A stretch of DNA of 64,000 bases, taken from NCBI GenBank assembly GCA_051294905.1, contig CM119372.1, positions 38,690,001-38,754,000 of the forward strand. The letters run 5' to 3'. The DNA comes from Botryllus schlosseri (taxonomy: Eukaryota). Positions within the stretch are counted from its first letter, which is position 1. Every line of letters starts with the position of its first letter. Made by a program: the position numbers and the translations under genes. This document shows, one piece after another, positions 36,320-58,200 of the stretch. The notes beneath the pieces were generated by a model. That model saw only the letters and a list, made by a program, of their open reading frames with translations, searched no databases and was not told where the DNA came from.

Positions 36320-37813
36320 GGTTCTATACCAATACTGAGAAAACCATTACCGAGAATGGACATTGCCGAGAATGCCATAACCGAAAATGAACATTACCGA
36401 GAATGGACATTACCGAGAATGGTCATATCCGAGAATGGACACCACCGAGAATGGACATTACCGAGAATGTCCAATGTCAAGAATATAGCTTACTGGGACT
36501 GACGTTGTCGAGAAATTTATACCTGAGCATCTATACCAGTGATTCCCAACCGCGGCCCTGAGGGCCGCATGCGGTATATTGGTATATTGGTATTATTTAC
36601 GGGCCCTACAGTTTCCAAGACACCTCACTCAGCTCTACCGGTAAATCTGATTACGTGAGCAGAGAGGACAAGTAATTGATAGCAATATATATGCAATCCC
36701 AGATCTTATTGACCTATTATATTTTGAATTATCGAAAATTTTCGCGCTCCACGTTGGCTCACTAAACGGGGATCCTGATTTCGTGGTAGAAGCGAACAAC
36801 GGAACGGGGGGTCGGTTTATCACCCTATGGGAGCTCAAGACCCAAGTGTTTTGGGGGGCCTGAAGAAGTGCCGTTTCGTTCCTGTCGACGGGTATACGCC
36901 CGAAGATGTTTAATTATTATTGAGTGGTTCTACCTTATCAAACACAACTCACTCGGCTCAACCGGTCAATCTGATTACGTGAGCAGAGAGAGGATAAAAA
37001 TTGATACCAATATATATGCAATTCGCGATTATATTGACCGATTCAATCATGAATTATAGAAATTTTTCGCGCTTCGCGCGATTAGTCGAGAGAAGCTGCC
37101 TAAAATGGACACCCGATTTAGATGATAAAGAGCGGTAAACAGCCATCTAGCGCAAGGGGGCTGGGGCCTTCGAAGTTCGGTTTATCACCCTATGGGGCCC
37201 AAGAGAAACGTTTTTTGGGGAGGGGCTGACGAAGTGCTGTTACGGCCCTGGGTATTGATATGTCGGTGTATATCGAAAGCAAGTGTCGCACTGATTCTAA
37301 AAATACGAATTGAAATCTCGCCAGGGCAATAAAACTACGCGGAAATAGCCAGCAAAGGTTGATTGTTCTGAACAACGGGAGCGGGGCAACACAAAGGCCA
37401 ATGGCGTCAAGCGAATGATCGGAACAATGCCAATTTTCATATTTTGGTGACTTTTTTGGGTTCCTTTCATTGCCCTGGTATTCGTGCGGCCTTGGCCGTA
37501 CTCTAAAATTCTAAATTTGGCCCTGCCACCGAAAAAGGTTGGGAACCACTGATCTATACCGAATGTGGCGACGCCGTGATGCACACACACGACCTGTGCA
37601 TATGCATAACATGCCTGCATTGCATATATTGCATTCTCGGTAATGTCCATTCTCGGTGGTGTCCATTCTCGGTAATGTCCATTCTCTGTGGTGTCCATTC
37701 TCGGTAATGTCCATTCTCGGTGGTGTCCATTCTCGGTAATGTCCATTCTCGGTGGTGTCCATTCTCGGTAATGGCATTCTCGGTAATGGTTTTCTCGGTA
37801 TTGACCGGACACC
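36320..37813. mobile_element. MULE/Foldback-like element with minisatellite inverted arms
   Basis: GG...CC ends and a perfect 9-bp TSD CATTTTCAA. Arms are 15-16-bp ATTACCGAGAATGGAC units (36330-36470) and their reverse complement (37633-37802). Confidence 0.85.
36537..37551. mobile_element. hAT element nested in the foldback, with two ~325-bp internal tandem units
   Basis: CAGTGATTCCCAACC...GGTTGGGAACCACTG, perfect TSD ATCTATAC. Units start CTCACTC.GCTC.ACCGGT.AATCTGATTACGTGAGC at ~36624 and ~36948. Confidence 0.88.
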
Positions 37814-38444
37814 CATTTTCAATTTCCTGAAAAATGAGGACGAATCTTCGAAAAGGAAAACTTGTGGTAACCGTAGTTGAAACAGAAGTTGGCATTTATC
37901 GAGTAGAACGATTATCACGAATTACTATCAATTATAATATTTTGTATTCTTTATCAGGAGAAACCTGTGGTGGTGTTTGTACGGTATACGACCCATATCA
38001 TTGTGACAGGACTATAGCCAACATCACGGTTGGTGTAAGCTCCGAATTATAGGGACACGGTAAAGTGGTGTGACCACTGTTGATCATTTGAAGACGGAAC
38101 AATGACGATTTTTCAAGTGGGCCAACTTCAAGTATATACGCTCATTACAGTTAATTTATTGACGAAAATGATAGCTTTCATACTATTTTTCACTGTGGTT
38201 ATCATGAGACTCCGGGTGATTGTATCGCAGCACGCGATATACGCAGTACAAAGCTACGAACGTCGTTGGAAATACCATATCTGTGAAGGAGTGATCAACC
38301 GACAGCATGCATCGTCAAAAATTAACAAATCATCTTCAATGTGATGTAGAACAGCAGCATCATATTCTTTGCTGTCACACAAAAGGAACATATCTGAACT
38401 TTCACTTCATTCATACTGTTATAATGAGCCCCAAAGGGGCCTGG

Positions 38445-39062
38445 CTGCTCATCCAACAATTCGCTGCTGAAGAGATTCGGCGTCCTAAACATAGAAGATA
38501 TGCGGAAACTAGAAATCGCCAAGTTTATGTATTAGTTCCACTGCGGTCGTTGCCCCGAATATTTCAATGACTTTTTTACCTCCGAATCAAAAGCGCACAA
38601 GTACAACACACGCGCGTCCAGGTCCACGTCGTCCAAATATCATATGATCGACCGAAAAGATCATCGCTCTATCAAATATGCCGGACCTGATGTGTGGAAC
38701 AGTATCCCGCCGGCCATCCGACAGTTGCCGAGCATGTCCACATTCAAGTCGAAATACATGCAATTACTACTAAATAAATACAGTCCATCCTCAAGATTAC
38801 CGGACCACGACTGACCTATCGATCTCGCTTCCCATGACATGCCGCCCGATTTCTTGTCGTTTTTTTTCTATACTATCTTCTTTACTTTCATTCAGTGTGC
38901 ATGCCTCCTCTTTACATCGCCTAGGCCAAGGTGGGTGTCTGATTCCATAGACTACTCCAAGTCGCTTCGACATCTTCCTGTCTATTTATTGTATCGCATT
39001 TTTTGTGGTGTATTGAACTGATCAAATTGCTAATAAACCAATGATGGTGATGATGATGATGA
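38445..39062 (+). mobile_element. 5'-truncated LINE (CR1/L2 group, Crack/Daphne-like): ORF2 C-terminus, 3' UTR and (GAT)n tail
   Basis: Translates as SLLKRFGVLNIEDMRKLEIAKFMY*FHCGRCPEYFNDFF...HKYNTR...SIKYAGPDVWNSIPPAIRQLPSMSTFKSKY, the typical post-RT C-terminus (HxYNTR, GPxxWNSLP) with one in-frame stop. Ends AATAAA then GATGATGATGAT. Confidence 0.88.
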
Positions 39063-39939
39063 GCGATACTCAGGTACAATCGAATCGACACGAAGCCCAA
39101 TACTCGATCTAGAATCGAATCACTCGACTACTCTTCATTCGAACCTTTCCGCACTAAGAGTTGGTCGGAAAAAGTGCATGAAGTGAAGTGGACTCATACC
39201 TATTGACTCGACATATGTTGTGAATTAGGATGCTTCCGTGTAATCTAATTATCAGACAATTTCGTGTAAGGGAGTCTTAGGGATGGTATGAACCTCTGGA
39301 AGGTTTATGTTCGTGTGAACGCGAACCTTTTTGAAAGGTTCTGTGTGAATGCGAACGTGAACCTCATGACGTCACGTGACGTCATATTGCTAATTCCAAC
39401 CCTACATTTCAGGTGATAGCCTATAACAGCGGTCGCGAACCTCTTTCGAACGAAGAGACATATTGACCCAATATTTTCATATGCAACTCCTAAAGAGCCA
39501 TAAATGCCAATCTACCATTGCGTCACAATTGAAAATTCGTGACGTAGGCTATTGCTAGCACTAATACCGGGAATTCGTAGTACGCGCCACATAGGTGAGG
39601 CACAGACGGGCCAAGCCTCACCTATGATAGCGCAACTCATCGTAATTAGCTTAGGCTTTATATTTACCGATATTAATCGAATGTAATTGTCGAACTGATT
39701 CAGAATATCTAAGTATTGATCGACTTCTCCAGTATTCGGCTAACAAAACGTTGCGCTACACACCAACATTTTAACGGCGGTCCGCTAGAAAGCTATACTT
39801 ACCAATCAAGAATATGGATAGCTATGGCGTTGTTTTTGATTTGAATTTCTAATTGTAAATGTCACTTCCAAGGCAGTTCATACATGACATACTGCATTGT
39901 CATACAAGCGTCGCCATGTCTGCTATTCTGTAATAGTAT

Positions 39940-40531
39940 CATAGTATAGATTACTAACCTACGGATAGATACGCAACTCCCGCAAAACCCGTCGTTACGC
40001 TCGGGCAAGCAGTTACTCTTAATGCTGTGAAATGTAAAAGCAGCTATAATTGGCACTGCCATAACTAGCGACCAGGGCGCTGAAAATTAATAAAACTGGT
40101 ATTATTTGAAAGCTAGTGTCGCATTGATTCCGACAATACAAATTAACATTTTGTCAGAGCAATCGAACCACCTCAAAACAGCCTTTAAAGTCTGAAAATT
40201 GTCATTGTTCCGAACAATGGCTTGACGAAACTGGCCATTGTTATGGTCATTGTGTCGCGGCGCTGTCATTGTTGGAACAATGCCGATTTTCAGACTTTAC
40301 GGGCTGTTTAGGGGTGGTTCCATTGCGCTGACAAGATTTAAATTTGTATTTTCGGGATCAGAAAGACACTAGCTTTCCATTAAGACCAATTATATTAAAT
40401 TTCAGCGCTCTGATCGCCAGCTACATCTCTACCAATTACGCTACTTTTAGATTGCTCGGCAATACGGGCCACTGCTTGCCCAAGCGTAACCACGAAGAGT
40501 TGCGTATCTATCCGTAGGTTAGTAATCTATA
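39940..40531. mobile_element. Palindromic MITE (CATAG/TATAG end, P-element-like)
   Basis: TATAGATTACTAACCTACGGATAGATACGCAACTC and its reverse complement at the two ends; palindromic throughout. A relative lies at ~30327-30815. Confidence 0.8.
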
Positions 40532-40533
40532 AT

Positions 40534-41106
40534 CATAGTGTCCTCTATGGTGTGGAAACAAGCAAATCACTCGGCTCAGTGAAATTGGTGTACGTCACAC
40601 TTTCAATTTGGTCAAAGGCAACTTTACGGCCATTTTTGACCGGATTGCCGAGCGCTAAATTCGATAGATCGGGTATCAATGGAAAGCTGCTGCTGTACCA
40701 ATTACGAAAATATAAATTTTATTCTGCTCCTGGTCCCGCAACCCCCCCAAAATCAGCCTCGAATCGTAATCAAGTTTTGACACCGTGACGCAAGAATTCT
40801 GTCTGGAGTCTGTCTCAGAGTGAAGCTAAGAAAGAGCCAGACAGCATGGCTGCGTCACAATTCAAAACTCGATCAAAATGTAAAATACGAGGCTGGTTTT
40901 GGGGCTTCCAGGACAATTAGCAGAATAAAATTTATATTTCAGCTGCTTTCCATTGATACTCGATTTATCGAATTTAGTGCTCGGCAAGCCGGTCAAAAAT
41001 GGTCGTAAAGTTGCCTTTGACCAGAGCGAAAGTGCGACGTATAGAACAATTTCACTGAAACGTGAGATTTGCTTGTGTCCTTGTCCACACCATATAAGAC
41101 ACTTTG
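40534..41106. mobile_element. Palindromic CATAGTGTCC MITE, copy 1
   Basis: Long imperfect inverted arms (GGTCAAAGGCAACTTTACG..TGACCGG / CCGGTCA..CGTAAAGTTGCCTTTGACC); sister of 41891-42434. Confidence 0.85.
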
Positions 41107-41890
41107 ATATTATATTCTAATCAAGGTATCGTGCACTGTCTTGACCTCTCAGAGACATATTTAGGCTGCCACGAGAAGAGCTATATTCTGGACGTAATGA
41201 AAATTTGCTGGCAAGTTGATGCAATATTGATAATTTATTACAAAATTGAAATATTGTTAAAGAGCCATATCATATACCCAAAAGAGCCATATATGTCTCG
41301 CGACCCATAGGTTGCCGACCACTGGCCTATAATAATTTACAGCTAGTACACGATGCCTAGCGACGACTCCTGCCACATAGTGCCATATGATGGCGCAATG
41401 CTGAAGTACATATTGACGTTTTAAACGTCGCCAAATGTATCAACTGGGGCAATCAAATAATATAATGATCCCATAAAACCAGTATCTTCCGTCGCTTCGC
41501 CAATAATTTCGACGAGGACTTGCAAGGGAATATAAGCATACGTCTTAACGGTCTAGGCCTGGCCGGACAACGTTTCCGGCGTCTGAGTATTGCTACGTTG
41601 ATATTGAGCAGAGTGTACAGCGGGTTTCTATACTTGGCACCGATATCACCCCATTATCAAGTTATACAGCAGTAGCCAACACCACAATCGCGCGGATTTG
41701 GTACAATAAACAAATGAAGTAAAGATTGATCCCGTACGCCTGCTAGATTTTTTACATCAGACAACGATATCAATTTCATTGATTGGTTGAATAAGCATTA
41801 TTCGCTGACTACCTACATGTATAGTGCAGTGGTTACCAACGTGTGGGGAATTTAATGGTTTCTGGTGGGGAATAGGCGCATTTGTTAAAC

Positions 41891-42434
41891 CATAGTGTCC
41901 GATATGATGTGGACACAGTGAGACTGAACGGCTCACTGCATTTGGGTTACGTCATACTTTCCATTTGACCAAAGGCAACTCTACGGCGATGTTTGACCGG
42001 CTTGCCGAGCGCTAAATTTTAAAAAACGGTACCTGTCCTGGAACCCCCCAAAATCAGCCTGGAAATTTGCATTGTGATCGAGTTTAGGCATTGTGACGCA
42101 GTAACTCTGTCTGGCTAAACGAGAATGAAGCTGCGAAGACAGACAGCAGACGCTGCGCAGACAGTCCTGTTGCGTCACATTGCCAAAACTTGATTACAAT
42201 TCGAATTTCTAGACTGAGTTGGGGGGTTCCAGCACCATGAACAGAATGAAATTTATATTTTCGTAATCAGTACAGCAGCAGATTTCCTTTGATATCCGTT
42301 TTATTGAATTTAGCGCTCGGCCAGCCGGTCAAAAATGACTGTTAAGTTGCCTTTGGTCAAATGGAAAGTATGACGTAACGCAAATGCAGTGAGCCATTCA
42401 GTCTCGCTGTGTCCACATTGTATAGGACACTATT
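41891..42434. mobile_element. Palindromic CATAGTGTCC MITE, copy 2
   Basis: CATAGTGTCC...GGACACTATT, 7-bp flanks GTTAAAC/GCTAAAC. Confidence 0.85.
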
Positions 42435-42539
42435 GCTAAACATTATATATAGGGAAGTCTACATATTCACGGAGACACATGAGCAATTACCGTTACCATA
42501 GTTAACTGCTCTGGAATGTATGTATTGAAAATTATATTG

Positions 42540-44864
42540 CAGTGCTCTTCAACCTGTGTGACGGTTCGCACTTGTGCGAATGAAAAAAATGCATTGCGAA
42601 TGACGAAGGTGGTGCGAATGGTGCGAATAAAATCCGGATGAATTGCGAATGAAAATCGTGAATATTTGTTAATTTTTTCTGACGTAGAATAATTCAAATA
42701 CACCTAATAGGAAGTAACTTTTGTAGTTGCGACGCAATTGTAAAAACTTACTTAATTTACGACGCGCCACTAATCGTAGTTCTCACAAGCCGTAGTGAAT
42801 TAATATTTTCGCAATTTAATTATTACGTAACCAAAAGCCTGATTTGGAAGCTGGTGTAGCGGCAGATATACCGTATATTAGCCCGTCTGATCCTGCGACA
42901 GGCAGGAAAAATGAAGTCAAATTGACTTTCTGCTCTCTTTCGCTAAACAATCATCATGTTGTCGTAATAACTGTTCGATTAGCGCAAAGCACTATGATAG
43001 TGGTAAATACCGTCATAACGGACTTTAATTTGTAAGTTACTGTAACGCAAATTTTCATCCCTTCTAGGGTTATTAAAGTAAGGACGTCTAGGGGTATTAT
43101 TTTGGGTCGACACGGTGCCAGTACTATCTGGTAATAAGTATGTAATATTTGAAGAATTTATTACAAAAAATCCTGTAATAATTTTTACACATCCAAGGTT
43201 ACTGTGTTGGGTACTGTAGCCAATTAGTGAGACATGCAGAAAATATTGCTTTATCATGAGAATTCATGATAAGATTTGCCCGACTGGTTTTTCTGGAAAA
43301 CATAGTCGAAGACCGTTGGGATGAACCAGTGTAGGGATGTGCGACGAGCGAGTTCAGGCCTGTGAGAGTCATTCATTTCGAGGCCACCCCTTCTGCGTCG
43401 GAGCATATGATGACGTAAACTTTTGACCAACAAACCGCTGATAAAATGCGGTGCCAAAACAAGCGGCGACAAAACCTTGGTCTAAAAATGACCGATGCTG
43501 GATGGATAAACCTTTAGCTATAGATATGCTCCGTTGTGGGCACGTAATAGTCCCGTTATTGCAATCTGAGTGTACAGTAGTACAACTGCAACACTCAGAG
43601 GAATTTATATCGCCCTAATTTGAAATCGCGTGCGTCAGACATGTTTTGTAGAGATGTGTTTGGTAGAATTGTGGTGTGCGCGTTCTGTATGTCATAAATG
43701 TCCGTAAAATCGTAGCATACAACTGCAATATTAAAAATGAATTCCTTTTCATGGGTGAGGCTCGGGTCGCGAGATGCCACAAAAAACTCAGATTTTGGTT
43801 GTAGTCAAAAAGCTGCTTTACCGTTGTTTAGGGTTACCATATTTTGGAAATCTGAAAAGAGGACACTTTTTCATAATTTTCAGACTTGCAAAACTGGAGG
43901 AAATCCTGAAAAAATGGTAAATTTTTCCCACTTCGTGCTCGGTTGACTGAAAAACAAAATGATCAACTCTCTCGTAAAGTACCCAAAATACAGTTTTTCT
44001 TTCACTTTAGCAGGTGGTTGACTGAAATAAAAGGTCAACCTTCCGGTTCAGCACCCGAAATACCCGCCGGAGCGTACTTCGGTGCTGATTTACAGCATAT
44101 CAGTCGAATTTAGCCGCGAATTTGACCAAAATTTGACAAAATCTCAAAAAAGAGGACAAAAGGGCGTGCACCGAGGGCCCTTTCAAAAAAGTCAAAAAAT
44201 AGGACAAATCCTCTTAAAAGAGGACGTATAGTAACCCTACCGTTATTAAACTGTTAGGCATTCTCAAGTGAGATAAATAGCAGAACACACGGTATCGTGA
44301 GTTTATTTGGTCTTCTCATATACTCGTGAGATGGAAATTGGAGCATCGTATCGTAAGGTAGTGAGCTCTAATGTGCCTAATCTCCTTGATCGTTTTGCAC
44401 CTTATGTTCCAAGGCAGAAGCCTCAACACAAACATGTGGGTTTTTCACCCTTTCGACAAACTGGAGTCTTCGAGACCTTTGTGTCAGCTATCAAAAACGA
44501 TTTCCGCCAGCAAGCATTTTTCACTTGCGGAAAATGCGCTGTATTTTCGATAGGAGTGCAGAATAGATTTTAAGACCTGGTCATCCAAGCACTAGTAGAC
44601 GTTTTTACACAAAACCCAACAACATTGTTTGGCTGAGAAGGGTTTTAGGGAAATAGTTGAAATCAAGACGAGCGAAAAAGTTGCCTTTTTAATGAGACAC
44701 TTAATAGCTTAAGCAACGTAGCCAATTTGTTGCACATCTGAACAAATTGTTGTTTCGTATCTTCATCTTCTTTTTGTATAACAATTTACGATTAGTTTGT
44801 GCGAATGAAATATATTTTACAAAAAAAAAGTGCGAATGGAGCTCAAAATGGTTGAAATGCACTG
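42540..44864. mobile_element. hAT element with TGCGAAT repeats
   Basis: CAGTGCTCTTCAACC...GGTTGAAATGCACTG, TSD TTATATTG/TAATATTG. Confidence 0.8.
43829..44239. mobile_element. TAGGGTTACC-family MITE nested in 42540-44864
   Basis: TAGGGTTACCATA...TATAGTAACCCTA, TSD CCGTTGTT/CCGTTATT. Confidence 0.88.
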
Positions 44865-46177
44865 TAATATTGCGTGTTGCTCACAAAAACTAATTTTAAA
44901 CTCTGGATAACCAATGATGACGTCACACACGCATCCACCAGCATCAGTATGTCGTGAAATAACGCTTTCGCTAAATTTTGATGGTCACCGGTATCAGTTC
45001 ACAACATGTTTTATGTTGCAGTAATAGGGGATTGTCTTGCGTACCGGTGTGGTTTTATGTCTCGTGTACTCGAACAAGAAAATAGAGTAGGGTTGCCATA
45101 CTTCCGGAATTTCCCGGACATGTCCGGAATTTCACTGTTCAAACTAGCGTCCGGGAGGAATTTCTAAAATATGCCAGATGTCCGGAATTTTGAAGACTTG
45201 ACGTAGGCTCATAATTTTTTCGTAAATCAGCATAAAAACAATATTTTTTGGGAATATTTAGACTGATGCATGAGATCATCTTCGCGCTACGCGCGATTTC
45301 CTATCACATTTTTTGATTTCAATATGGAGACTACCGCCCTTGCAAAAACTGCAATAAAATATAAATAAAAACGTCCTTCATTTACTGGAATAAGCCTAAT
45401 TGTAATCGCAATTATAGGCGAACATTATATTCCTAGAAATCGTTGAGGCCGTTTAAATGCTTTATTCAAAAAGTGGTTCCAAACGGGGGTGGAGACCTTT
45501 GTCTTTATTCTGGGGTTTGCGAATATGTTGCACGTAACCACATTTCAAAACAGCCCGGGAGTAAGTCCGGGCAAAGGTACTGATTTCTTTTAGTAATCAG
45601 CTCGTCAAATTTTGATCTGGTTCACGGATCATTTTCAAATTGGAGATGGAGTCGCGACCATAAACGGTTGGAAACCACTGGATGTGGGGTCTTTATAAAG
45701 CTCCGTGGTGCGCACCGGCATAAGGCTGATAAACAATCTTATCGATAGGCAGACATGGGGTGATTTCTTCATGAATGTAATCGATTGCGATTACGATTAC
45801 TTCCGAATGACGCGATTACGATTACGATTACGATTACAGCAAAATCAGGAAGTAGTCGATTACGATTACGATTACATTGGAAAAGTAATCACGATTACTC
45901 ACGATTACATTTATTTTGTATCTTAGAAGTTATATTGGAAAACAATACATGGATTACGCTGAAAAGGCCTAATGAGATAACAAACTTCTTTTAAAAAAGA
46001 TGCGTCATTTGCTTGTTGCGTCATAATGTACCCATTGCCCATTTTTACAGAGAACGATTTATCGCATCCAACGATTTGCATTCTTGCCAGGTCCATGACT
46101 GCCGCACCCCAAATTCCCCAATAGGGCGGGAAGCGAGCTCGAAGGGGACTCAAAAGTATTTTGTACATAATTTATAG

Positions 46178-46561
46178 TAGGCTTGCATTTAAAACAAATG
46201 GTTGTTTAAAACACATTGTTTAAAACATGTTTAAAACAGTGTTTTAAACAAAAAATTAAAAAAAAAAACTAAATTGTTTTTTTTTAAGTTGTAAAATTAT
46301 GCCATAATTGTGTAAATGCTTTCCACAATCACCAACCGATTTAGCCGACGTACATCGATATGGGATGGTTGGATTCCCTCAAAATAGTCGGTTCAGCAGT
46401 TATAGTACAGATATTTCGTCAACGGAGCTATATTTACCCTATATTTTCAATTGTCAATGTCAATCCACATTCGTGATGTCATGGCTTTAAAAAAATATGT
46501 TTTAAACAAGGGCCTTGTTGTAAACATGCTCGGTTTAATTTTTTTTTTTAAATGCACCCTA
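46178..46561. mobile_element. MITE with TTTAAAAC repeats, level 5
   Basis: TAGGCTTGCATTTA...TAAATGCACCCTA, perfect TSD ATTTATAG. A right-end relative lies at ~17010-17135. Confidence 0.85.
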
Positions 46562-47006
46562 ATTTATAGCAATAGGCATTTAGGTTCCAGTCACTACCGT
46601 GCCACGACACACCAAAAGACATATGCAATTTCGACCAACACGCGACATCACGGAGTGTGCTACTAATCAAAGACCTCGGCCGAAACTTGGGGCATGTGTC
46701 AATTGTCAATAGCCGCGCTGGGTGGCCGTGACTAAGAGTCCGGCGGTCCTTCCAATCCGAGCCCACAATTCAAATGCCACCAGGACACCCACAGAGCATT
46801 AAAGACATGACAATTTGTGTGTGCGTCTCACGAAAGTGTTTCTTTTAGTCTGCTACGTTTGGGATACAACAATATCTTTTGATTATATAACAGACCGGAA
46901 GTCACGAATTACCAGCATACACTAAAGTAATTATAACAAGATAACAGACGTTATGATTATGAATCACGTGCCCCCAGCTCTACAGGTAAATCTGGCCATC
47001 GGAGGC

Positions 47007-47032
47007 AGAGAGAGAGAGAGAGAGAGAGAGAG
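47007..47032 (+). repeat. (AG)13 microsatellite
   Basis: Read directly. Confidence 0.9.
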
Positions 47033-50000
47033 GAATAAAAATTAATAATAATATAATGCAATTACTAATATTATTGACGAAATTCAGTCTTCAACTTGAA
47101 AATATTACCCTATGGGGGCCAAAGACCAACGTTTGGACTGGGGGACGAATTGCTGTTTTGGTCCTGATTCTAGCTGCAACCCGCGCTAACATGATAGCCC
47201 ATGGCTATGGCGGCAGATCCCAATGTTGAGTAAAGAATTATGAAGTAACGATTGGGGCCTGTTTCAAGTAGAGTCATATGAGATTAAGATGAAGAGAACA
47301 TAAAATTCTGCCTTCAACTTAATACAGATAATGTACTGCAAGCTGCCGCTACGAGAAACGGCAAAAACGGCTCGGTTATGATATATATCAGCAGCTGCTG
47401 ATTTTTATTGCTTCGTTGTGGAAACCGTGATGTTTTATTTGACGAGTACAAAATTTAAAATCTCTGTCCGGTGTAAGTACGTACTACATAGGCCTACTGC
47501 TCGCCAAGCAGCAACGCTCAAACTGCGTTTGCATAACCGAACATCAATACACAAGTTACTAGGTAGAGTGGTGATTAATTGTCCTGCTGCGGGGTACTGG
47601 CGTGCGGAACGTGTTGATAGCCTGATATACAGCACGGCGGGTGTTCTTACAATCACACGAATGTACGTGACGTACATCGTGACGTACAACGTGACGTACA
47701 TTACCGTGGATACTTCTTCCGCAATGACTAGCAAAGCTAATAGGCTACTTCTGACGTAATAATGAGCAATGGCATTTAAAAATCAGACGTTTGTGCTATC
47801 ATGAACCTGGTATAATACATCTTCCTTGTTCATGAATGTTCAGTTTATGTCATAGTACTTGTACAAATAAAAAGTAATCGTTCTTTCACAAAGAAATCGA
47901 TTAGATATGGGAAGTAGTCGATTACGATTACGATTATTTTGGATTTTTTTCGAATGTAATCGATTGCGATTACGATTACTTGAAAATGCTGTAATCGTCG
48001 TAATCGATTACGATTACTAATCGCGATTACCCCATGTCTGTCGATAGGACATGAATATGAACATGACTTAACGATGTGCAATTTCGCTCCCTTTATTTTC
48101 GAACTCATCATCCTCCACCAGCTCTACCGCTAACTCTGATCATCTCGTAGGAGAGTAGTAGGCCTATCTACATAGAAATATGTGAAACGACTAATATTAT
48201 TGACAGAATTCATTCAGATGATTTAACGACCAGACGCATATAGCAATCAGATTTATATAGCAAGCACCCTGCCTCCAGAAGTTGCATCGATTACCCTATG
48301 GTGTGGGTCAAAATCATTAGGTATTTGGGCGGGAGGGGGCTGAAATCATGTGGTTTCGGTCCCGGTTAGGCAACACACAGTCACATACTCCTGAACCGGA
48401 TCGTGACCACCTCTGGTCTATGAGCAAAGCTTTGCTAATGTGACGTCAAAACTCATTTTGAAATCCACTAGTGGGCGCTAAAGAGTGAACGGAATTTGGG
48501 TTGCTGAAATATGGTAACCCTAAAATAGATGCTCCGTAATGACGAAAGTTTGGGATAGTGGGGAATGAAGACTCGGAATAAATCTAACGTGGGGAATCAG
48601 GACAAGAAGGTTGGAAACCACTGATGTAGTGTATTTCACTCTTGATGTTGTGTTCTTGCGGGCCAAGCTCACAACAGAAATCTTTGATATTGTCAAGGTG
48701 CATGCTCGCTTAGTGTTGAATTTTTACGCCGCTAGCGCCATGCATAGAGCGGCCCGCAGTTGAAATGTAATAGATTTCAACCAAAGATTTTATAATGAAG
48801 TGAAAATTGTAATATATGAAAGAGGTTCACAGTGCAGAACCTACCGAGGTTCGTTGGAGAACGTGAACCTCTAAATTTGTGAGGTTCACACACTGAACGC
48901 GAACGCGAACCTCATATTTACATCATCCCCAGGAAATATAAATATTGTATCATAAGACCCGGGATCTGCTATCGCGGCATACTATACGCGTCCGATTGTT
49001 AAAATTCCTTAACCCTTTGGATATCTGTGACATATTTTGTAAGACTATGCAACACTAGCTTCTCAGCGAGAGACATTCAAATTATTTTGTGATACGAATG
49101 TTATTATACAATGTTATTGCCAATAGTCTACTAGTTGCTTACGGGTGTCAGCCGAAAATATTCGGGCTCATTTGAATATGAATATACCATGTTCAATTGT
49201 ATACTGAAGTTCTGAACCCCTAAGAAGCTCTTCGAATTATTTGGTGGTAACACGACGTAACATAATTTTTGTTTGATTCCATTTTGATACCACTTTATGT
49301 TTCATCGGGATATGCAAATATGTCGCTGGTGATGTGTTCTTAGGACGTGAAAATTGATACAAACCGACTTCTGGAAATGAATCTATAAAGTCGGTATGTT
49401 GGGTTGAGATACCATTAGGACGATTTGTCCTCCTTTTTCAGGTTTTTGAAAATGTCCTCCGAGGACGCCTAAATGTCTTTTTCGAGAATGTTTGTTAAAT
49501 ATAGGGAAAAATTCGACTGGTATACAGTAAATCAGCACTGAAGTAACGCTCCGGCGGCTGTTTCGGGAACTGAGCCGGAAAGTTGACCTCTTTTTAGTCA
49601 ACCGAGCGCAAAGTGGGAAATATTCACTATTTTTTAAAGATTTTCCTTCGGTATTCTAAGTTTTAAAATTTTGAAAGAGTGTCTTCCTTTCCTGATTCCA
49701 AAATATGGTAACTCTAATTTGGGGTATGCTTCGAAATGTCGGCATCATAAGATACGTTTTGATACATGACTCGTTGTCGCAATATCAATTAAAGTCCAGA
49801 TCTTTCCAAACGATGACTTATAAATACTTAACAGTAGGGTTATGCTTACTATATTTTGAGATCCTAAAACGAGGAAACTTTTCATAAATTCCGAGTTCCA
49901 CCGGCCAAGAAAACTGGTGATTTATTTTGAAAATCTTTCGACCGAATAGTACTGTGATTCTCAAATTACCCGCTTTTTACGATAGTGTACGGTGTTGACT

Positions 50001-52136
50001 AAATGATGGTCATCACGTTAACTCGACGCCCGATTTTCCCCATTTCATACGAAACTCTGAATTTCGGTGCGTCGGAGTCAAATTTTTCATTGCATTTTAA
50101 TCCTTTTCAGAGGAAAAAGGGGACAAATTCCGCAAAAAGAGGACATTTAGGCGTCCTCCAAGGACACTTTCAACTTATTGAAAAAAGGACAAATCCTCAT
50201 AAAAGAGGACATATGGTAACCTTAACTGACAGTTAGTAATCTTGAATTGTAAGTAAAGATTTTGAACGCGAGCCGTATTACTCCAATTACATTGCAAGAA
50301 TAAATATTGATGCATTCGCATTGCACTTAAATCGTTGTGTGTTCTACAAACTCGCTAATGTTGAAAGTTGTCAAGAAGTGCCTGAACAACCAGTGTTTTA
50401 CTATTATCAAGCGCGCGTTGTTGTAATTACGCCGCGTTGGTAAACACTCGGCGTATTGCACGTGAGAAGCCAACATGTGTTATACCAGTTCCCAGAACAC
50501 CAAGACAGTGACGCGTCCAAACAAAACCTGGTTTGAGTTTATAGCCTGAGACCTCTATGGAATGTTTTCATCTGCTATATCTTTTCATCAGAGTGGACTG
50601 TCATGCTGTAAGCACGCGAAAGTCATTGTAGATGGTCAAGTCAACTTCAAAAGTCAACAAAATCAACAATACGGTTAGCCTTTAACGCGGCCACAAGGTG
50701 GCGAATATCGCAGGGGTATGTTTTACATATGCAGCACCAATGGATTTGGGGATTCAAGTCTAGCTGAGGTAGACCAGAACTCCTGTCACATAAGTGATAA
50801 GTTATAGGCTGATTAGTCTCCCCGTCGCCATTAGATTCAACGAAGCAGTGTGGTGTCAGCGCTTGGAAACACTATAGTGGAGTAGTTCTGATGCACGACC
50901 GGGCGATGCCTTACCTATAATAGCGCAATTCATCGTAAATATCATAGAATTTATATTAACTGAGATTAATCGAATGTAATTGTCGCACTGATTCCGATTC
51001 GACTTCTCAATTCTCAACGCATTCGGCGGTAACATAACGTTGCGTCACACGCCTACATTGTCACAGCGACTACAAAGCTACGTTATCAATCAAAAACGTG
51101 GATAGCTATGGCGTTGTTTGTAATTTGAATTCGTAGTTGTGAATGTGACTTCCCCGGTAGGTAATTTCTTGCCCTATCAAGAAGACAATGTGCATTTGAA
51201 AACTGCATTGTGATACAGATGCTGCCACGTATCATACTCTCTTTCATCAATCAATCCAAGATTTCATGGAGGGTACATCGAATTCTGGTGTGATATTGGT
51301 CGCCTGCGGATTTTGAAAAGGGTGTCCGAGCCCCTTATCCCGAATACGTCACCGTATTGACCTCTCAAAGTCATGTTTATAATACCACAAGTATAATTAC
51401 ACTGGTCGTGCTGGAGATTTAATAACACGTTGCTGCAATATTGATAATAGGCACAAAAATAAAAATTTCGCAAATAGCCATATCTTATGCCCAAAAGAGC
51501 CATATATGGCTCGCGAGCCATAGGTTCCCGACCACTGATCTATACAATTATACGCTAGAATATTGCAGCCATGCAGCGAACCGTTGAATCGTGCAGCGTG
51601 ATAGCGTCGAGGAAATTAATTTCTATGTCAGGTATCCTCGATAAATTACCGGTTGACAACTATATAAGGATTCCGACTCTGCCATGATATCGCCGAGAAA
51701 GTGCACTAGTGACGGAATGCCTGTCAGAAATATCGCAAAGGGTTAAGAAGCGACAACCCATGTACTCGATAACCCAGAGGTCGGTGGATTGGAATGGTAC
51801 CTTTCGTGACTTTTTTGCGTAGTAAATGTGAACGAGAAAGGCATTTAGCACCAGGTCCGGATCGGCTGTGGTTACATTTGTACTATACGGCAAACGAGAA
51901 CGCTGAACAACTTTCTTTGCGCGCTCGTCAAGGTATGGCGAACCCCCACAACGCCCAGTTTGGGAACCGTCGACACGCTGTGCAAGAAAGTCATTTGAAT
52001 CGTGTGGTGCGATCGAATTATTGTTTTCCAGAAAATGTATGCCTCTTACGATATAGTATAGTAAGCACTCACCTATCTATTTATATTGTGCGTCAATCAA
52101 GTGTCTACCATCTAAGTTAGACTAAATCTATAGACA

Positions 52137-52214: not shown

Positions 52215-55200
52215 GTAAAGTATACATTCAATATATATATAAGCATGTTCGACGATACTATGGGGGCCGGAGATCTATATCATCGAGAGTTTCATAGTTA
52301 TATTAAAGCTCTACTCGTAGAACTATCCTACCTGCTGCTGGCTGACTTTTATAAATTTATTCGTAGCTTCTAAAATTACTGTTTAGGGTCGCGCTCGGAA
52401 TTAGCGGTCCGCAAGCTTGATAAATTTTCAAAGGTGCCCATGTCAGAAAAAGGGTTGGGAGCTTGTGCACTAGCGTGGACTACTGCGCTGAAAAATTATG
52501 TCCTCATTTCATACACGTATACCCAATTCATGCACGCACTCCAAGGAATGGATTGTTCTTCTTTCGCAGCTACTCGATGATACATCCAGAGGCATATAAC
52601 CCTGTCGAGAAGCGCTAAATGGAAGTATTATTACTAGGTAGGCTTACCATACGTCCTCTTTAAAGAGGATTTGTCCTCTTTTTTTGACTTTTTTGAAAGT
52701 GTCCTCGGAGGACGCCCTTTTGTCCTCTTTTTTGAGATTTTGTCCTCTTGTTTGAAAATTTAGGTCAGATTTAGATGAAATTGCAAGCGATATGCCGCAA
52801 ATTAGCCGAGAAGTGACGCTCCGGCGGGTATTTTGGAGGGAAAAGCGGTGATTTTTGCTCTGAGCGAAAAGAAGATCTTTTTTTTTTTTTTAGTCATCCA
52901 CCTGGCAATGTGGAGAGAAAAACGTTATTTTGAGCTGTGAGCGGAAGTGATGACCTTTTTTTTTTTTTTTTTAGTCAACCGATCACGAAGTGGGATAAAT
53001 TTACCGGTTTTTGAGAATTCTTCTCCAGTTTTGCATGTCTGAAATTTCTGAAAAAGTGTCCTCTTTTTACATTTCCAAAATATGGTAAGCCTATTACTAG
53101 GGCAAGTTTTTACAACTTTCGAGAGCTTCCTAAATACTCAGAAGTTGTGTAGTATGGTGTTTTAAACTGTTTGGAGGGAATCATAAGTTGAAACTCTTTG
53201 CAGCTTTTTCGATTTTTCGTAAAACATTTTGCAAGTTTTTTCGATTTTTTCATGCAACTTTCTGCAAATCTTATTATTTATTTTTCATGCAATTACCTTT
53301 TCACTGGAAATATTTGGCGCTATATGTTATTCAATAGCTCGCTTGAATATTTCACTGTCGTTTAAAGTTGAGGCCCTTTCTGATTCGACGTACATTCAGG
53401 CTAGACCGCCAAAAATTATATTTTCACTGCGTCATTTTTTCAGGCCTTTGATGTTGTTGAATGAAGTCGCCAAGACTGAGTTTTGCTACGGTGCCTTGAA
53501 TACGGATAGATTCGAGTATCTCCTCATACCACTAATAATGTCAAGGAACTTGCCCACAAAAGCAACTTTTTAGTGCAACTTTGGTGAAAATAAATGCAAC
53601 TTTTTACCGCAACTTTTATGAAAAATAAGTTGTACTTTCCGAGGATTTGACTGCAACAAAAACTTGCCATAAATGTTATCATTAATAACTCAAATTGCGT
53701 GACATATATTGATGAAATTGCTTTATCAACTGAAGCTGAATAGTAAAATAACAGTATACGTAGGTTTTACAATAACTGTCAAAATCTTGAGCAGCAAACG
53801 GATCAGACAACACATCGACATAGTCTGTTGGCCACGGCCATACAGCGGCTGTAACCGCATAAAATGCCTCATTCTCGGTACACGACCTCATCGCACTGTC
53901 GGCTGTGTTTGCTTCTTGTAAATCAGATACCTGGCTTCTTGAGTGGAATACAGCTGCTTGATAAAAATACAAAGTCCAAGCTATGAATAACTGACAAAAT
54001 TATTATAACGTCTAATTCTTGATACAAATAAGACAAATTAAAAATATATTGAAATCAAATACATAGGCTACCATGAAGTAAAACATTTAACCCAACTATA
54101 ATATGCATGGAGGTGGTCAAAGTAGTCGAGAAAGCTACTCAAGTAGAAGTAGAAGTAGCAACGAAAAAATCTATTCAAGTACGAGTAGAAGTACTTTTTC
54201 CATAAGCAACCTAAAACTACTTGAAGTACACGTAGAATTGACTGACTTCAAATATAATCAAGTAAGTAAGTATAGTTTTGAAAACAGTCATAATTAGTTC
54301 GCATGGTCTGTGAAAATCCGCAAATTGAGCTATGCGGAAGGTGCAGAGAGCTTGATTCGTATAGATGCATCTCAGGAATTATCCATTTTCGACAGCATAA
54401 GCATTCTTTCGCATCATGGGATACAAATTATAGTATTGATATGAAAATGCGATACTAACCCTTTTGTTTACTAGAAGACCCCATTTTAGAGAACATCATG
54501 GCATGGCGCCATACTCCATATTATAAGTCCCCAAGTTTAGGCGAAGACCAAAACGTAGAAGTTGTATCGGATACGGTTTCAACACTTCGCGCGATTAGTA
54601 TACGTTAATAACAAATATTGTGGATAGTAAAATTTATATTTGGTGTAGCTTTATTTTCGGAAAATAGAGGCACTTGATTTTATGCTTCAACCTGTATGTT
54701 CTGCAGACAAAGAACTGAAAGTAATTAGAATTCAAAGTATGATACTGGGAATTGAAAGAGAAATGCAAATACCACTTCTAAAAAGCGGAAAATATATTTC
54801 ATGTCTATTGATCGTAACGATTCAAAGGTGATCTGCTAAAACAGGTGTAACGTTAAAAAAAGCCGGATTTTCCAGATTACAAGGACACGTCATGGCCTGC
54901 TAGATGACGATATGATAGGGATTTACTAGATTGCGAAACGTTAGTTTCAAACGTTTTGGTGGGCCATATTTACTATGATGAAATATTTGATATGGGCGAC
55001 AATGCGGTATGAGCGGAACCGAGCAATCCGGTACCTAAATTATATATTCAGTGATACTTCCGCGAAAACATATTTGTCACTCCAGAACTACTGTGCGCGA
55101 AGCGCAACAAAATTTCTGGGCTTTACTTCACTTTTATGAATACTAAATGTCGGAACTCCGTGAAAACAGCCCCGAAATTCCTCAGGCTATCTTTCGTATT

Positions 55201-58200
55201 GGAGGATTAAAATACTCCTACTTTACAACCTGAAAATATCGAAAAGTAAGTAAGTAAGTAACAAAATATTACGAAGTAGAAGTAAACAAAATCAGATCTA
55301 CTTGATTAAGTACCAGAATTAGAGGAAAACTACTTGAGTACTTTCAAAAAGTAGAAATACTTCGTTACTGACCACGTCTGGATATTGAAACGCATAAACG
55401 TATTAAACTAAAGTAAGCACACGATTCAAAATTGGTAATTCTTCACTGGCAAATAATTTTTCTCTGATGGATGTTATTTGTCCTGTGGGGTGCAGATTAT
55501 GACGACATGATAATTCCACACGTCCGATTTAAGCACCTATGGATATAGGCAGTGTTTTACCGGGAAATTCGCGATCTAAAAGTACGCGCAATTCGTTTTA
55601 CGTGAACTATAATAACCCACTACATTTATAAAAACATACGTTGCAAACATCGTCGCGACCAAAAATTTCGGGATTTGACATGTTTTGTGGAATGTTAATT
55701 TGCTCTGAATACTCATTAAGGATATGTTCTACTACTACATCATATACTGCGAAGCCATTTTACTTCAGCGCCCCGCATATCACCCCCCTGAGCCCAGCAA
55801 CCCCCATATCTCTCCCTGAGCGTTTCCGCTCCCTTCCAACGCCTCCCAAGCGGCGCTGAAGGCAAGGTTAAGAATCACTGATGTAAAGGAACACAACTGT
55901 AAATGCGCCATACAATTGCACAGCGACATTGCAAATATCCTATTATTCAATGAAACGTAAAGCAAAACGAGGAAATGGATAATGAAACGAAACAACATAG
56001 CAAATAAATGGAATAATTTGACAAAAATGCAACACCAATCAGTTGGATGAATGAGTTGATTTTTCGAAATTTTGAAATCTTTGTCCGAGATCTTCCACGG
56101 CTTGTAAAAGATAGACACAAGGCATGGGAAACGGACTGAAAACGGACGGACTGAAAACGGACTTTTTTAAAGTTGGTCAATTCTGAACAACCCTAACGTA
56201 CACGTGCACTCGTGCAGTCGTGCACTCGTGCACTCGTGCAGTGATAAATTGGAGGCGCCAGTAAAAGCATTCATGCGTCATAAACAGAAGCATTAGGCCA
56301 TAGCAAACGTATGATTCTACGACAACAGCGGCTATTGAACATATAGTGACGCAGTCAGAAAATATTGGCCGTGGCATCATCATATAAACAATAAACATGT
56401 TATTGTACAATGTTTGCTAGGTCAGTTACGTAAGTTTTATCGCTCGCGTGTAAAAGGAACACCTTGTTTTCACTTGCTGACTAACCGATCATATGAACTG
56501 GCCGTCCAACATAAGTATTGCCCTCACGGCTGGAATTTTCAAGCGGTCTGGAAGAAGAACGATTTCCCGCTTTAAATAAAACAATATCTTTATTCACGAT
56601 ATTAGTTTTTACGTTCGTGAGATTGTAACCTCATGGTTTTGGGTTTTGCCACCAGGCGTCTGTGAAGGTGGGGCATATTGACGCTACACGTTACCATACG
56701 CCCTCCTTTAAGAGGATGTGTCCTCCGAAATGTTCTCCTTTTTGACTATTCGTCATCCTTTACTGCTTTTACAGGTAGGATAATGGACAGTTTCAACTTA
56801 AATTCAGCATAAATGACGGGAAATAAGTGATACGGACGTTCGTGCGGGCCATTCGGGAATCGGATGAAAGTGACGAGTCAACTCACCAAATTTTCTAGCA
56901 AAAATTGCAAAATTGTCTGTTTTCAGTATAGACCAAGTAACTTTTCTGATTTGGAAAAAGTGTACTCATTTCCCGATTCCAAAATATGGTAATCCCACCG
57001 TATGTTCATATACAGGCCGTTACTCAATTGAGGGTAGGCGATAGCATGCGCAATTGTGCATACATACATGCCAATATGAAGTATCTACCAACTATATATT
57101 CAGTTTGACACTTGACCTGAATGTAATCCTCCGCGATTAAATGTACAGGCGTATACGCGATTGGCGTCTGTGTATGACATTCATATGGAAAACGTGGGTG
57201 CAGTGGCCAATGAAAACCTAGTCAAGGTTGCTTTTGAGTTCGTAAAAAACGACGAATCAAGCCTGATGCTCGACGTCGCTGCCGGTGAGTGATATAGTCG
57301 AGAATTGACTATTGCGGATGCTATGTATACTGTCGGCTATATGTTAAGACTGGTTTTTAACACAAATTCGTATTTAACCAGAAGCGATCTGTAACAAAGT
57401 ACACCTTTTTTAGGCCCTAGGGATTACTCACAGAGGTTTTTCCTGCCTGAATTGCTTACTCAAATGCCTAAGATTTTAGATTGCTTTCATTGCCTGACAG
57501 TTTACAGTTTTTAGGCGAAACTAGCCCTAACATACTCACTATTTTACTTACATTGAAATTGCTACTGTTACTTTTACGTCAATATTAATTTGTGACTTAT
57601 TCTAGACTTTGACCACCTCTGAATAGAGCAGGGGTATCAAACATACGGCCCCGCGAAGCAATTTTGACTGCAGTGTTGGGATCAAGTCACTACCTTCGAG
57701 TCACGAGTCATCTCGAGTCATTGCACATTTTGACTCGAGTCAAGTCAAGTCAATCAATTTTCGAAGGTGACCCGAGTCAAGTCAAGTCACTCCATTTTTC
57801 GAGGTGACTCGAGTCAAGTCAAGTCAAGTCACGAGTCAAGTCACAATTCAAGTCAAGTTGCCTTTTCGAAGTATGATTACGTCATTGGATTTTGCTAGCT
57901 GGCTGAAATACAGATTGAGTGGTCATTGATTCTGAACCGATGAACGAATATAGAGTTTAATATACACCCAAGAAGGCGCTGTATCGTATGAAGGACGATT
58001 ACGTCATTGGATTTCGCTAGATGGCTGAAATACAGATTGAGTGGTCATTGATTCTGAACCAATGAACGAATATAGAGTTAAATATACACCCAAGAAGGCG
58101 CTGTATCGTTCATATATACGTAGAATTGGTGAACTACCCAAGTAATTGCATAGCCTCAGTTTACCAGCCAGAATAGATAATAGAGAAACGAATTGTTACG

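Follow-up and report, generated by a model that had tools for sequence, protein, structure and literature searches.

The 64,000 nucleotides analysed here (the window) contain, between positions 39278 and 48931, a stack of transposons lying one inside another, which raises the question of whether such a stack records a true succession of insertions and whether its depth calls for elements that seek each other out. This 9.65-kb stretch is a nest of eleven gene-less transposons with a depth of up to five. We regard it as real and likely built by successive cut-and-paste insertions, with repeat density and not targeting likely behind it, and give this reading a probability of roughly three in four.

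Architecture of the nest

The five end pairs of the main series (the spine, E1–E5) and the three side branches (S1–S3) proposed in a preliminary description of this DNA were reproduced with identical counts of matching target-site duplication (TSD) positions. About ten non-autonomous families are truly nested, as seen from the pairs of terminal inverted repeats (TIRs) and TSDs and from paralogs that lack the inner elements. The earlier feature list holds for the claimed pairs, but 39940–41106 proved to be two foldbacks, and the elements at 41891–42434 and 46088–47166 had been overlooked. The features are as follows (ungapped TSD matches; strand is assigned to the gene only; peeled lengths are those after removal of inner elements).

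7705–34200, plus strand: SLC1A/EAAT glutamate-transporter gene, a neighbour; the nest starts ~5 kb past its last coding exon
39278–48931: E1, level 1, hAT-like, non-autonomous; TSD 5/8, motif pairing, paralog, paralog contigs
39427–41324: S1, level 2 side branch, CAG-ended, hAT-like, ~730 bp peeled; TSD 8/8, contigs, paralog
39940–40533: C1, palindromic (foldback), within S1; inverted arms 35/35 at 39945–39979/40497–40531
40534–41106: C2, palindromic, of the family of C3, abutting C1 and sitting in its end or beside it; self-inversion
41827–48623: E2, level 2, hAT-like, CAGTGGTT-ended, ~470 bp peeled; TSD 6/8, TIR 13/14, motif, contigs
41891–42434: C3, palindromic, inserted in E2; 7-bp TSD 6/7 (chance 0.002)
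42540–44864: S2, level 3 side branch, CAGTGC-ended, hAT-like, ~1.9 kb peeled; TSD 7/8, TIR 12/14, motif pairing
43829–44239: S3, level 4 side branch, 411-bp TAGGGTTAC-ended MITE; TSD 7/8, several copies in the window
45088–48522: E3, level 3, TAGGGTTGCCA-ended, hAT-like, ~1.1 kb peeled; TSD 7/8, paralog
45472–45680: small CAGTGG-type module within E3, common to the E3 paralog
45750–48040: E4, level 4, CAGACATGGGG-ended, ~1.9 kb peeled; TSD 8/8, TIR 13/14, contigs
46088–47166: element X, CAGG...CCTG, between E4 and E5; TSD 7/8
46178–46561: E5, innermost 384-bp MITE; TSD 8/8, repeats TTTAAAAC
48075–48366 (approximate limits): decayed X-like right half within E3, partly common to the E3 paralog

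For random pairs of 8-mers within the window, the probability of at least 5, 6 and 7 matches is 0.033, 0.005 and 0.0006, respectively. A TIR+TSD scan of the whole window returned 19 pairs, against 1, 3, 6, 1 and 1 in five shuffles; six of the eight end pairs described earlier are among the 19, E2 falls in a looser class and E1 in neither. In a matrix of subterminal motifs the element's own right end was top-scoring for six of eight left ends (for E2 and E3 the left-end 7-mer score did not point to it), and the motifs of E1, E4, E5 and S1 are near-unique within the window.

Independent copies were sought in contigs of four (X1, X13, X14 and X6) out of 17 public runs, X1 perhaps coming from the sequenced sample itself. 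The listing comprised 15 joints out of 4129, 40 letter rows out of 3302 and 32 pieces out of ~240,000, totals that do not include every one. Eleven of the 15 listed joints skip S1, E2 or E4, and paralogs within the window lack S1, E4 and E5; no empty site for E3 in E2, S2 in E2 or E1 itself is among these 15 (of 4129), which is no evidence of absence. In X1, X13, X14 and X6, respectively, E2 is absent from 38, 33, 9 and 10 contigs (four rows), E4 from 29, 23, 26 and 5 (two rows) and S1 from 19, 23, 8 and 7 (three rows from 39412). The 6/8 reported for the E2 duplication ATGTAGTG is correct as an ungapped count, but it becomes 8/8 once the left copy is allowed a single gain of 2 bp (TA). The 9-mer GTGGGGAAT occurs twice per E2 end and in the window only at 41843, 41865, 48558 and 48589.

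Further inward, a paralog of E3 at 27598–29595 retains both ends, is flanked by an 8/8 TSD of its own and does not contain E4; a three-way alignment with E3 is meaningful only for the left part of E3 against this paralog. Homology to element X sets in with the element's first base at 60574 and runs out with the last one at 37250 and 36884, and X paralogs at 4038–4629 and 60472–60574 cross the E5 site without E5. Among the side branches, S1 has a partial paralog at 50889–51537 and S3 has full-length ones at 52639–53093 and 32363–32826, with loose ends at 43829 in 410, 515 and 98 contigs (agreement 0.37–0.38). The segment 39940–41106, formerly taken for one element, consists of two abutting palindromes: C1, whose right terminus is blurred by C2 and which has relatives near 30327–30792 and 37272–37477, and C2, which is self-inverted at 75% over 40519–41120 and 65–75% identical to C3.

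Superfamily affiliation of the elements

We infer that eight elements (E1–E5, S1–S3) and X were moved by hAT transposases. None of 57 reading frames of at least 55 aa reached the Pfam cut-off (five weak, unrelated matches lay below it), so that the superfamily calls rest on end anatomy. hAT elements carry short subterminal repeats at both ends; such repeats are clear in E1 (ends of the TAGGGATG type, repeats GAACCTC/GAACGCGAAC), E4 (CGATTA), E5, S1 and S2 (GTGCGAAT), are represented in E2 by the 9-mer confined to its ends and are weak in E3 and S3. The 8-bp TSD typical of the superfamily is preserved at 8/8 in E4, E5 and S1, at 8/8 with the 2-bp gain in E2, at 7/8 in E3, S2, S3 and X and at 5/8 in E1. 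The TIRs match at 10–13 of 14 positions in eight elements (E1 being weaker) and peeled lengths are 0.38–1.9 kb, while hAT elements are described in the excerpted text of PMC3517528 as having TIRs of 5–27 bp and a length under 4 kb. The same text gives nnnTAnnn as the TSD consensus of the Buster family, and a central TA is present in 11 of 18 TSDs of the window, against a background of 0.074 (the tally leaves out the scan pairs 10335, 11686 and 56788, likely chance matches, and includes E1 and E2); a single TSD per family is too little for a family consensus. Within the nest it occurs in five of nine eight-base TSDs; since the other four lack it, several hAT groups are probably mixed.

The elements are non-coding (no coding match), TIR-bounded and in high copy; in the four runs the nest is covered by contigs in 30 of 30 bins at a summed depth far above that of single-copy contigs, a depth that is no copy number. 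MITEs measure a few hundred bp. By size, the label MITE, given to about ten families in the preliminary description, may suit E5, S3, E2 and C1–C3 (0.38–0.6 kb); E1, E3, E4 and S2 (0.9–1.9 kb) are rather non-autonomous DNA transposons.

For C1–C3 we infer mobilization by a P/Galileo-type enzyme. Their inverted arms span 113–165 nt at 80–87% identity and the whole elements are self-inverted. The flanking 7-mers match at 6/7 for C3, 5/7 for C2 and 6/7 for C1 and C2 taken jointly, and one X13 joint leads from 41886 to 42442 across 4 letters, which fits the size of an empty C3 site with a 7-bp TSD. Galileo foldbacks of the P superfamily, according to the extracts of PMC4168063, have long inverted arms, as here, and a 7-bp TSD, to which the 6/7 flanks of C3 and of C1 with C2 may correspond; C1–C3 differ in being palindromes of 540–600 bp with no coding part, and their targets are loosely like GTANTAC.

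Other classes were considered as well. ISL2EU, described in the excerpts of PMC4482050 as having an AT TSD and TIRs mostly beginning with GG, was ruled out for the CATAG-ended C1–C3, whose ends begin with CA and of which C3 has no AT duplication. An LTR retrotransposon nest was excluded by the inverted-repeat ends and the lack of a coding match. As neither an Rfam match nor a tRNA was found in the window, no SINE-like RNA head was detected. Outside the nest, a piece at ~38400–39050 resembles the 3' end of a LINE, with no Pfam match there.

Order of insertion

A readable chronology had been proposed for this locus, and it holds in part. The inner element is younger than the outer one for E2 in E1, S1 in E1, E4 in E3, C3 in E2 and E5 in its host; in each case there are copies without the inner element. 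On the other hand, element X and two modules of E3 look inherited with their families, and therefore geometry alone gives no local chronology. The module 45472–45680, common to E3 and its paralog, looks inherited with E3 and not inserted locally. X probably inserted at an earlier date and has travelled with the E4 family; its junction with E4 is crossed by one X6 contig that shows 29 differences. Some layers of the nest thus seem to have been passed on as modules within composite families.

The proposed inward rise of TSD matching is likewise only partly borne out. It is present on the five-element spine (rho 0.97, p 0.017), which was hand-picked, but it fades when the side branches are included (p 0.054–0.086), and the level-2 branch S1 already shows 8/8. 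Over nine elements rho is −0.54 (p 0.07), falling to −0.29 (p 0.30) without E1. Identity to paralogs within the window does not rise inward either (E1 79%, E3 73–83%, E5 73%, S1 75%, S3 69–75%).

Repeat density, rival readings and published nests

The nest is likely what ordinary insertion produces when elements land again and again in DNA consisting mostly of transposons. Transposases encoded elsewhere would drive successive cut-and-paste insertions, many of them of hAT type with a Buster-like nnnTAnnn target; with each insertion the neutral DNA open to later ones would grow, and in this way a few old elements may become large nests. X in E4 and the two modules in E3 would be old insertions into a master copy, carried along afterwards. 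The repeat share outside the nest has a floor of 0.41 and a rough, crudely calibrated value of 0.62. In a simple simulation of uniform insertion without deletion, which is very sensitive to the repeat share, nests of depth at least five with at least eleven elements arose at 0.003, 0.027 and 0.12 per 64 kb for repeat shares of 0.5, 0.6 and 0.7, i.e. ~5–190 per 100 Mb at 50–70% repeats; at 0.40–0.45 the yield was 0.0005–0.0008 per window, or ~1 per 100 Mb. Since random insertion yields such nests at 50–70% repeats, targeting is not needed, although it may contribute; the preferential insertion of MITEs into MITEs suggested earlier is neither required nor demonstrated.

A preference of the elements for other non-autonomous elements, guided by a sequence, hairpin or chromatin cue and making nests outgrow the density prediction, is nevertheless the rival to be taken most seriously, and we hold it doubtful. 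Ten of eleven local insertions hit another element, such a nest would have a simulated probability below 0.001 per window were the repeat share near its floor of 0.41, and the excerpted PMC5172404 describes a preference of this kind in certain MITEs of rice and mosquito. However, random insertion at a share of 0.55–0.65 already gives 15–87 such nests per 100 Mb, the TA density of six host elements (0.070–0.096) is like that of the window (0.074), the removal of insertions that fall in functional DNA would look like a preference, and the window was chosen for this nest. An extended version, in which non-autonomous hAT elements home in on each other and nests are re-mobilised as composite families, built recursively, is no less doubtful; if it were true, with E4 carrying X and E3 two older modules, one locus would record both homing and re-mobilisation. 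We judge it still less probable that the spine was largely pre-assembled, a composite of E2 with E3, S2 or more having jumped as a block, in which case the order would not be the history of the locus. The module 45472–45680 and the X-like half common to the E3 paralog, the divergent contig across the E4/X junction and the missing empty E3 and S2 sites in E2 among the 15 listed joints (of 4129) are in keeping with such a block. Yet E4, S1, E2, C3 and E5 are each missing from other host copies, hence not family-wide, E3 and S2 retain TSDs of 7/8, and a 6.8-kb composite would exceed the size of under 4 kb given for hAT elements in the extracts of PMC3517528.

Two further readings would deny the outer levels or the nest itself, and both are very improbable. 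If the outer end pairs belonged to separate copies, just the inner three levels would be real; the 5/8 TSD of E1 (chance P 0.033), its absence from the TIR+TSD scan, an in-window paralog that ends after 259 bp and a TAGGG-type right end at 39404 could be taken in this sense. The site at 39404 is ruled out as an alternative right end, being internal, present also in the paralog and flanked by a 0/8 TSD. Against separate copies, the E1 motifs are confined to its ends and the paralog (the subterminal score is reached by 9 of 2539 windows, seven at the paralog and two at the right end), the paralog at 24058–24301 reads across the S1 site, and in the four runs paralog contigs, maybe from a few atypical copies, join the left part of E1 to the middle and the middle to the right, skipping S1 and E2. 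The outer end pairs thus delimit single elements, E1 being ~940 bp once inner elements are removed (39278–39426, 41333–41826 and 48632–48931). An assembly chimera of repeats has in its favour that no listed contig spans the nest and that even in the best run just 0.64 of the sampled words are present, but mis-joins would not leave every inner element flanked on either side by copies of one target duplication, and the flank with the left end of E1 is covered by a 299-bp contig without differences in X1 and by one with 6 differences in X13.

Nests of this general kind have precedents. In plants, nested LTR retrotransposon blocks show the same Russian-doll geometry and grow by insertion into neutral DNA; the present nest differs in its TIR elements, in having no paired LTRs for dating and in its size (10 kb vs tens to hundreds of kb). 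TinT reportedly is a nest-based chronology of transposable elements. Deep nesting, presented earlier as classically a trait of plant LTR elements, is not confined to them: MITE multimers and DNA-transposon chronologies are published, and both nested MITEs and nest-based dating are thus already known. Multimers account for over 10% of 6,600 rice MITEs (Jiang and Wessler 2001, as cited in the extracts of PMC5172404 and PMC3695323), and the same extracts record nested MITEs in rice, maize, sorghum, mosquito and carrot, with a safe-haven explanation. Like this nest, multimers consist of non-coding TIR elements that have landed one within another; as far as those extracts go, they are Tourist/Stowaway and shallow, whereas here we have a depth of five, eleven elements of 0.4–1.9 kb, mostly with 8-bp TSDs, and an ascidian-like genome. 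Mar, a Buster hAT of Drosophila willistoni, shares the 8-bp TSD enriched in central TA, short CAG/TAG TIRs and a length under 4 kb (excerpts of PMC3517528); in the nest, by contrast, no transposase relic or autonomous partner was identified and four of nine TSDs lack the central TA. Giordano et al. 2007 (PMC1914374, in extract) ordered families by interruptions, including hAT (MER1/Charlie) DNA transposons, from genome-wide counts, while the present locus gives one order, confounded by inherited composite modules. Among the results listed in our literature search, mostly of papers outside subscription, none dealt with hAT elements nested in an ascidian genome.

As a textbook case, the nest illustrates neatly how deeply DNA transposons can be stacked in an animal, and from it about ten families of an ascidian-like genome can be placed in a partial order. 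It also counsels caution where nests are used to date families, as layers that came along inside composite families may be taken for insertions at the locus. It would gain greater weight only if a genome-wide count showed true targeting or the recursive birth of families from nests. By the TIR+TSD scan and repeat analysis, two further nests lie in the same window.

End pairs and empty sites of the nest

The nest at 39278-48931 is real and unusually tidy, but ordinary. All end pairs in the preliminary description (a five-level nest of non-autonomous transposons) were re-measured by comparison of ungapped 8-bp flanks, which confirmed the five pairs of the spine (E1, outermost, to E5, innermost) and the three side branches (S1-S3).

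End pairs of the nest and number of matching positions in their 8-bp flanks
39278-48931, E1, spine, 5
41827-48623, E2, spine, 6 (ungapped)
45088-48522, E3, spine, 7
45750-48040, E4, spine, 8
46178-46561, E5, spine, 8
39427-41324, S1, side branch, 8
42540-44864, S2, side branch, 7
43829-44239, S3, side branch, 7

In random pairs of 8-mers from the window, at least 5, 6 and 7 matches have chance probabilities of 0.033, 0.005 and 0.0006, respectively. A blind scan of the window (CAG/TAG ends, target-site duplication (TSD) of at least 7/8, terminal inverted repeat (TIR) of at least 10/14) returned 19 pairs versus 1, 3, 6, 1 and 1 in five shuffles. It recovered six of the eight pairs, with E2 only in a looser class; E1 was not picked up by this TIR-plus-TSD scan.

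The weak outer end pairs of E1 and E2 are genuine. Within the window, the E1 subterminal repeats (GAACCTC/GAACGCGAAC) are confined to both E1 ends and a partial paralog at 24058, which crosses the S1 site without S1; the E1 motif score was reached in 9 of 2539 scored segments. The E2 motif GTGGGGAAT has four occurrences in the window, two per E2 end, and a 7-mer motif matrix did not single out the own right end of either E2 or E3. Contigs of 4 out of 17 public sequencing runs (X1, which may be the source sample, X13, X14 and X6) were aligned to the nest at 80% likeness. Among the 15 listed of 4129 contig joints, to which all joint and contig counts here refer, 11 skip a nested element, the remaining four being one flank deletion and three internal deletions. 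S1 is skipped in three joint rows from 39412 (19, 23, 8 and 7 contigs in X1, X13, X14 and X6, respectively) and one longer skip, E2 in four rows (38, 33, 9 and 10), and E4 in two rows (29, 23, 26 and 5) and one longer skip. Thus, the left, middle and right parts of E1 are joined directly in other E1 copies, which removes the possibility, raised in the preliminary description, that the outer ends belong to separate copies. At the empty E2 site 41816 continues straight into 48624, so that the E2 TSD is ATGTAGTG, with 2 bases gained in the left copy; the 6/8 match reflects one event, not two. No empty site was found among these 15 joints for E3 in E2, S2 in E2, or E1. An E3 paralog (27598-29595) has both ends and its own 8/8 TSD, and lacks E4.

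Additional layers and insertion order

The segment 39940-41106, previously taken as one element, is instead made of two abutting palindromic foldback elements, C1 and C2. A third, C3 (41891-42434), lies within E2 and has a probable 7-bp TSD matching 6/7 (chance 0.002); one listed X13 joint is of just the length that its empty site should have. With such a TSD it would resemble Galileo, characterized by long arms and a 7-bp TSD (PMC4168063). The C1 outer arms (39945-39979 / 40497-40531) match 35/35 and its inner arms are ~80% alike; the perfect outer arms could reflect a recent insertion or arm homogenisation. At 39933-39947 the 7-bp left flank of C1 recurs in the C1 terminus; P-type target-site restoration would predict this, and it may explain the C1/C2 abutment.

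Between E4 and E5 lies X, a CAGG...CCTG element at 46088-47166 (TSD 7/8, TIR 10/14). Taken on the scan alone, this pair could be a chance one, but the first base of X marks the start of homology at 60574, and its last base marks the end of homology at 37250 and 36884. Paralogs of X run through the E5 site and do not contain E5. A single X6 contig spanning the E4/X junction (167 and 68 letters either side, 29 differences) suggests that X travels as part of the E4 family. Two further pieces within E3, a 209-bp module (45472-45680) and a decayed X-like half (near 48075-48366), recur in the E3 paralog and so appear to be inherited. CAGTGG-ended elements at 3087-4967, 36537-37551 and 59535-60902 have perfect 8-bp TSDs, and all three contain X-like internal pieces, which suggests that X modules are common to families with different ends. 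The nest, with eleven local elements, has a geometric depth of six and a local depth of five.

For hosts that are also found without the inner element, the nesting gives a fixed insertion order: E1 precedes S1 and E2, E2 precedes C3, E3 precedes E4, and X precedes E5. The originally described inward rise in TSD match holds on the spine alone (rho 0.97, p 0.017) but weakens with all eight pairs (p 0.054-0.086); for nine elements scored as events, TSD versus depth gives rho -0.54 (p 0.067), or -0.29 (p 0.30) without E1. The TSD gradient adds little to the chronology, and no inward trend was found in identity to in-window paralogs.

Element class and random insertion versus targeting

None of 57 reading frames of at least 55 aa reached the Pfam cut-off, so the elements are non-autonomous; for their movement they would have depended on hAT and P-type transposases supplied in trans. 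The nest elements with 8-bp TSDs, short TIRs and a size of <4 kb are like hAT elements, for which PMC3517528 gives the same three features, along with nnnTAnnn as the Buster target. A central TA occurs in 11 of the 18 TSDs tallied for the window, and in 5 of the 9 from the nest (background 0.074; three scan pairs dropped from the tally, E1 and E2 added).

Repeats detectable within the window make up at least 41% of the sequence outside the nest. Self-BLAST recovers 0.51 of the nest (all transposon) versus 0.315 outside, giving a rough repeat share of 0.62. In our own simulation (uniform insertion, no deletion, 8000 window-equivalents per repeat-share value), nests of depth at least 5 with at least 11 elements arose at 0.0005, 0.0008, 0.0034, 0.0095, 0.027, 0.056 and 0.119 per 64 kb for shares of 0.40-0.70 (step 0.05). 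Scaled to 100 Mb, these rates range from about 1 to 186 nests. Under this model the nest would be an expected tail event at the likely share, for which random insertion suffices, and rare at the 41% floor. Together with a host-element TA density like that of the window and two further nests there, the simulation argues that the suggested preference of MITEs for other MITEs, or any preferential targeting of other elements, is unproven and probably unnecessary.

Nesting of this kind is already known from other organisms. MITE multimers occur in rice, maize, sorghum and mosquito, with a reported preference for other MITEs (PMC5172404), nested MITEs and a safe-haven idea are described in carrot (PMC3695323), and interruptions have provided a genome-wide chronology in mammals, hAT families included (PMC1914374). 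No publication on such nests in ascidians was found in the literature searched, with most subscription journals outside its scope.

Host gene and neighbouring elements

The nest starts about 5 kb past the last coding exon of the following gene, whose best named relatives are in Clavelina, Ciona and Styela (71-79% over the test exon), which makes an ascidian host likely.

7705 to about 34200, + strand, SLC1A/EAAT glutamate-transporter gene, about 11 coding exons by tblastn

An intron of this gene holds another nest (26923-31560, CAG-ended, TSD 7/8), which contains the E3 paralog, an element with an 8/8 TSD (30826-31252) and, near 30327, a relative of C1. Adjoining the main nest, a TTAA-flanked one with CCC...GGG ends (about 49011-51744), which we take to be piggyBac-like, contains two pieces of the S3 family and one copy of the S1 family. 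Base 49332 is A in the window and C in the sole covering contigs of X1 and X13, either an allele or an assembly error. The segment 38400-39050, with very high contig depth and no Pfam match, resembles a LINE 3' end with a (GAT)n tail. No tRNA or Rfam matches were found in the window. A 1.4-kb element at 19998-21418 has a terminal inverted match of 20/20, AT-rich flanks and no clear TSD, and a 122-bp unit at 57868-58109 is present in two tandem copies, 95% alike.
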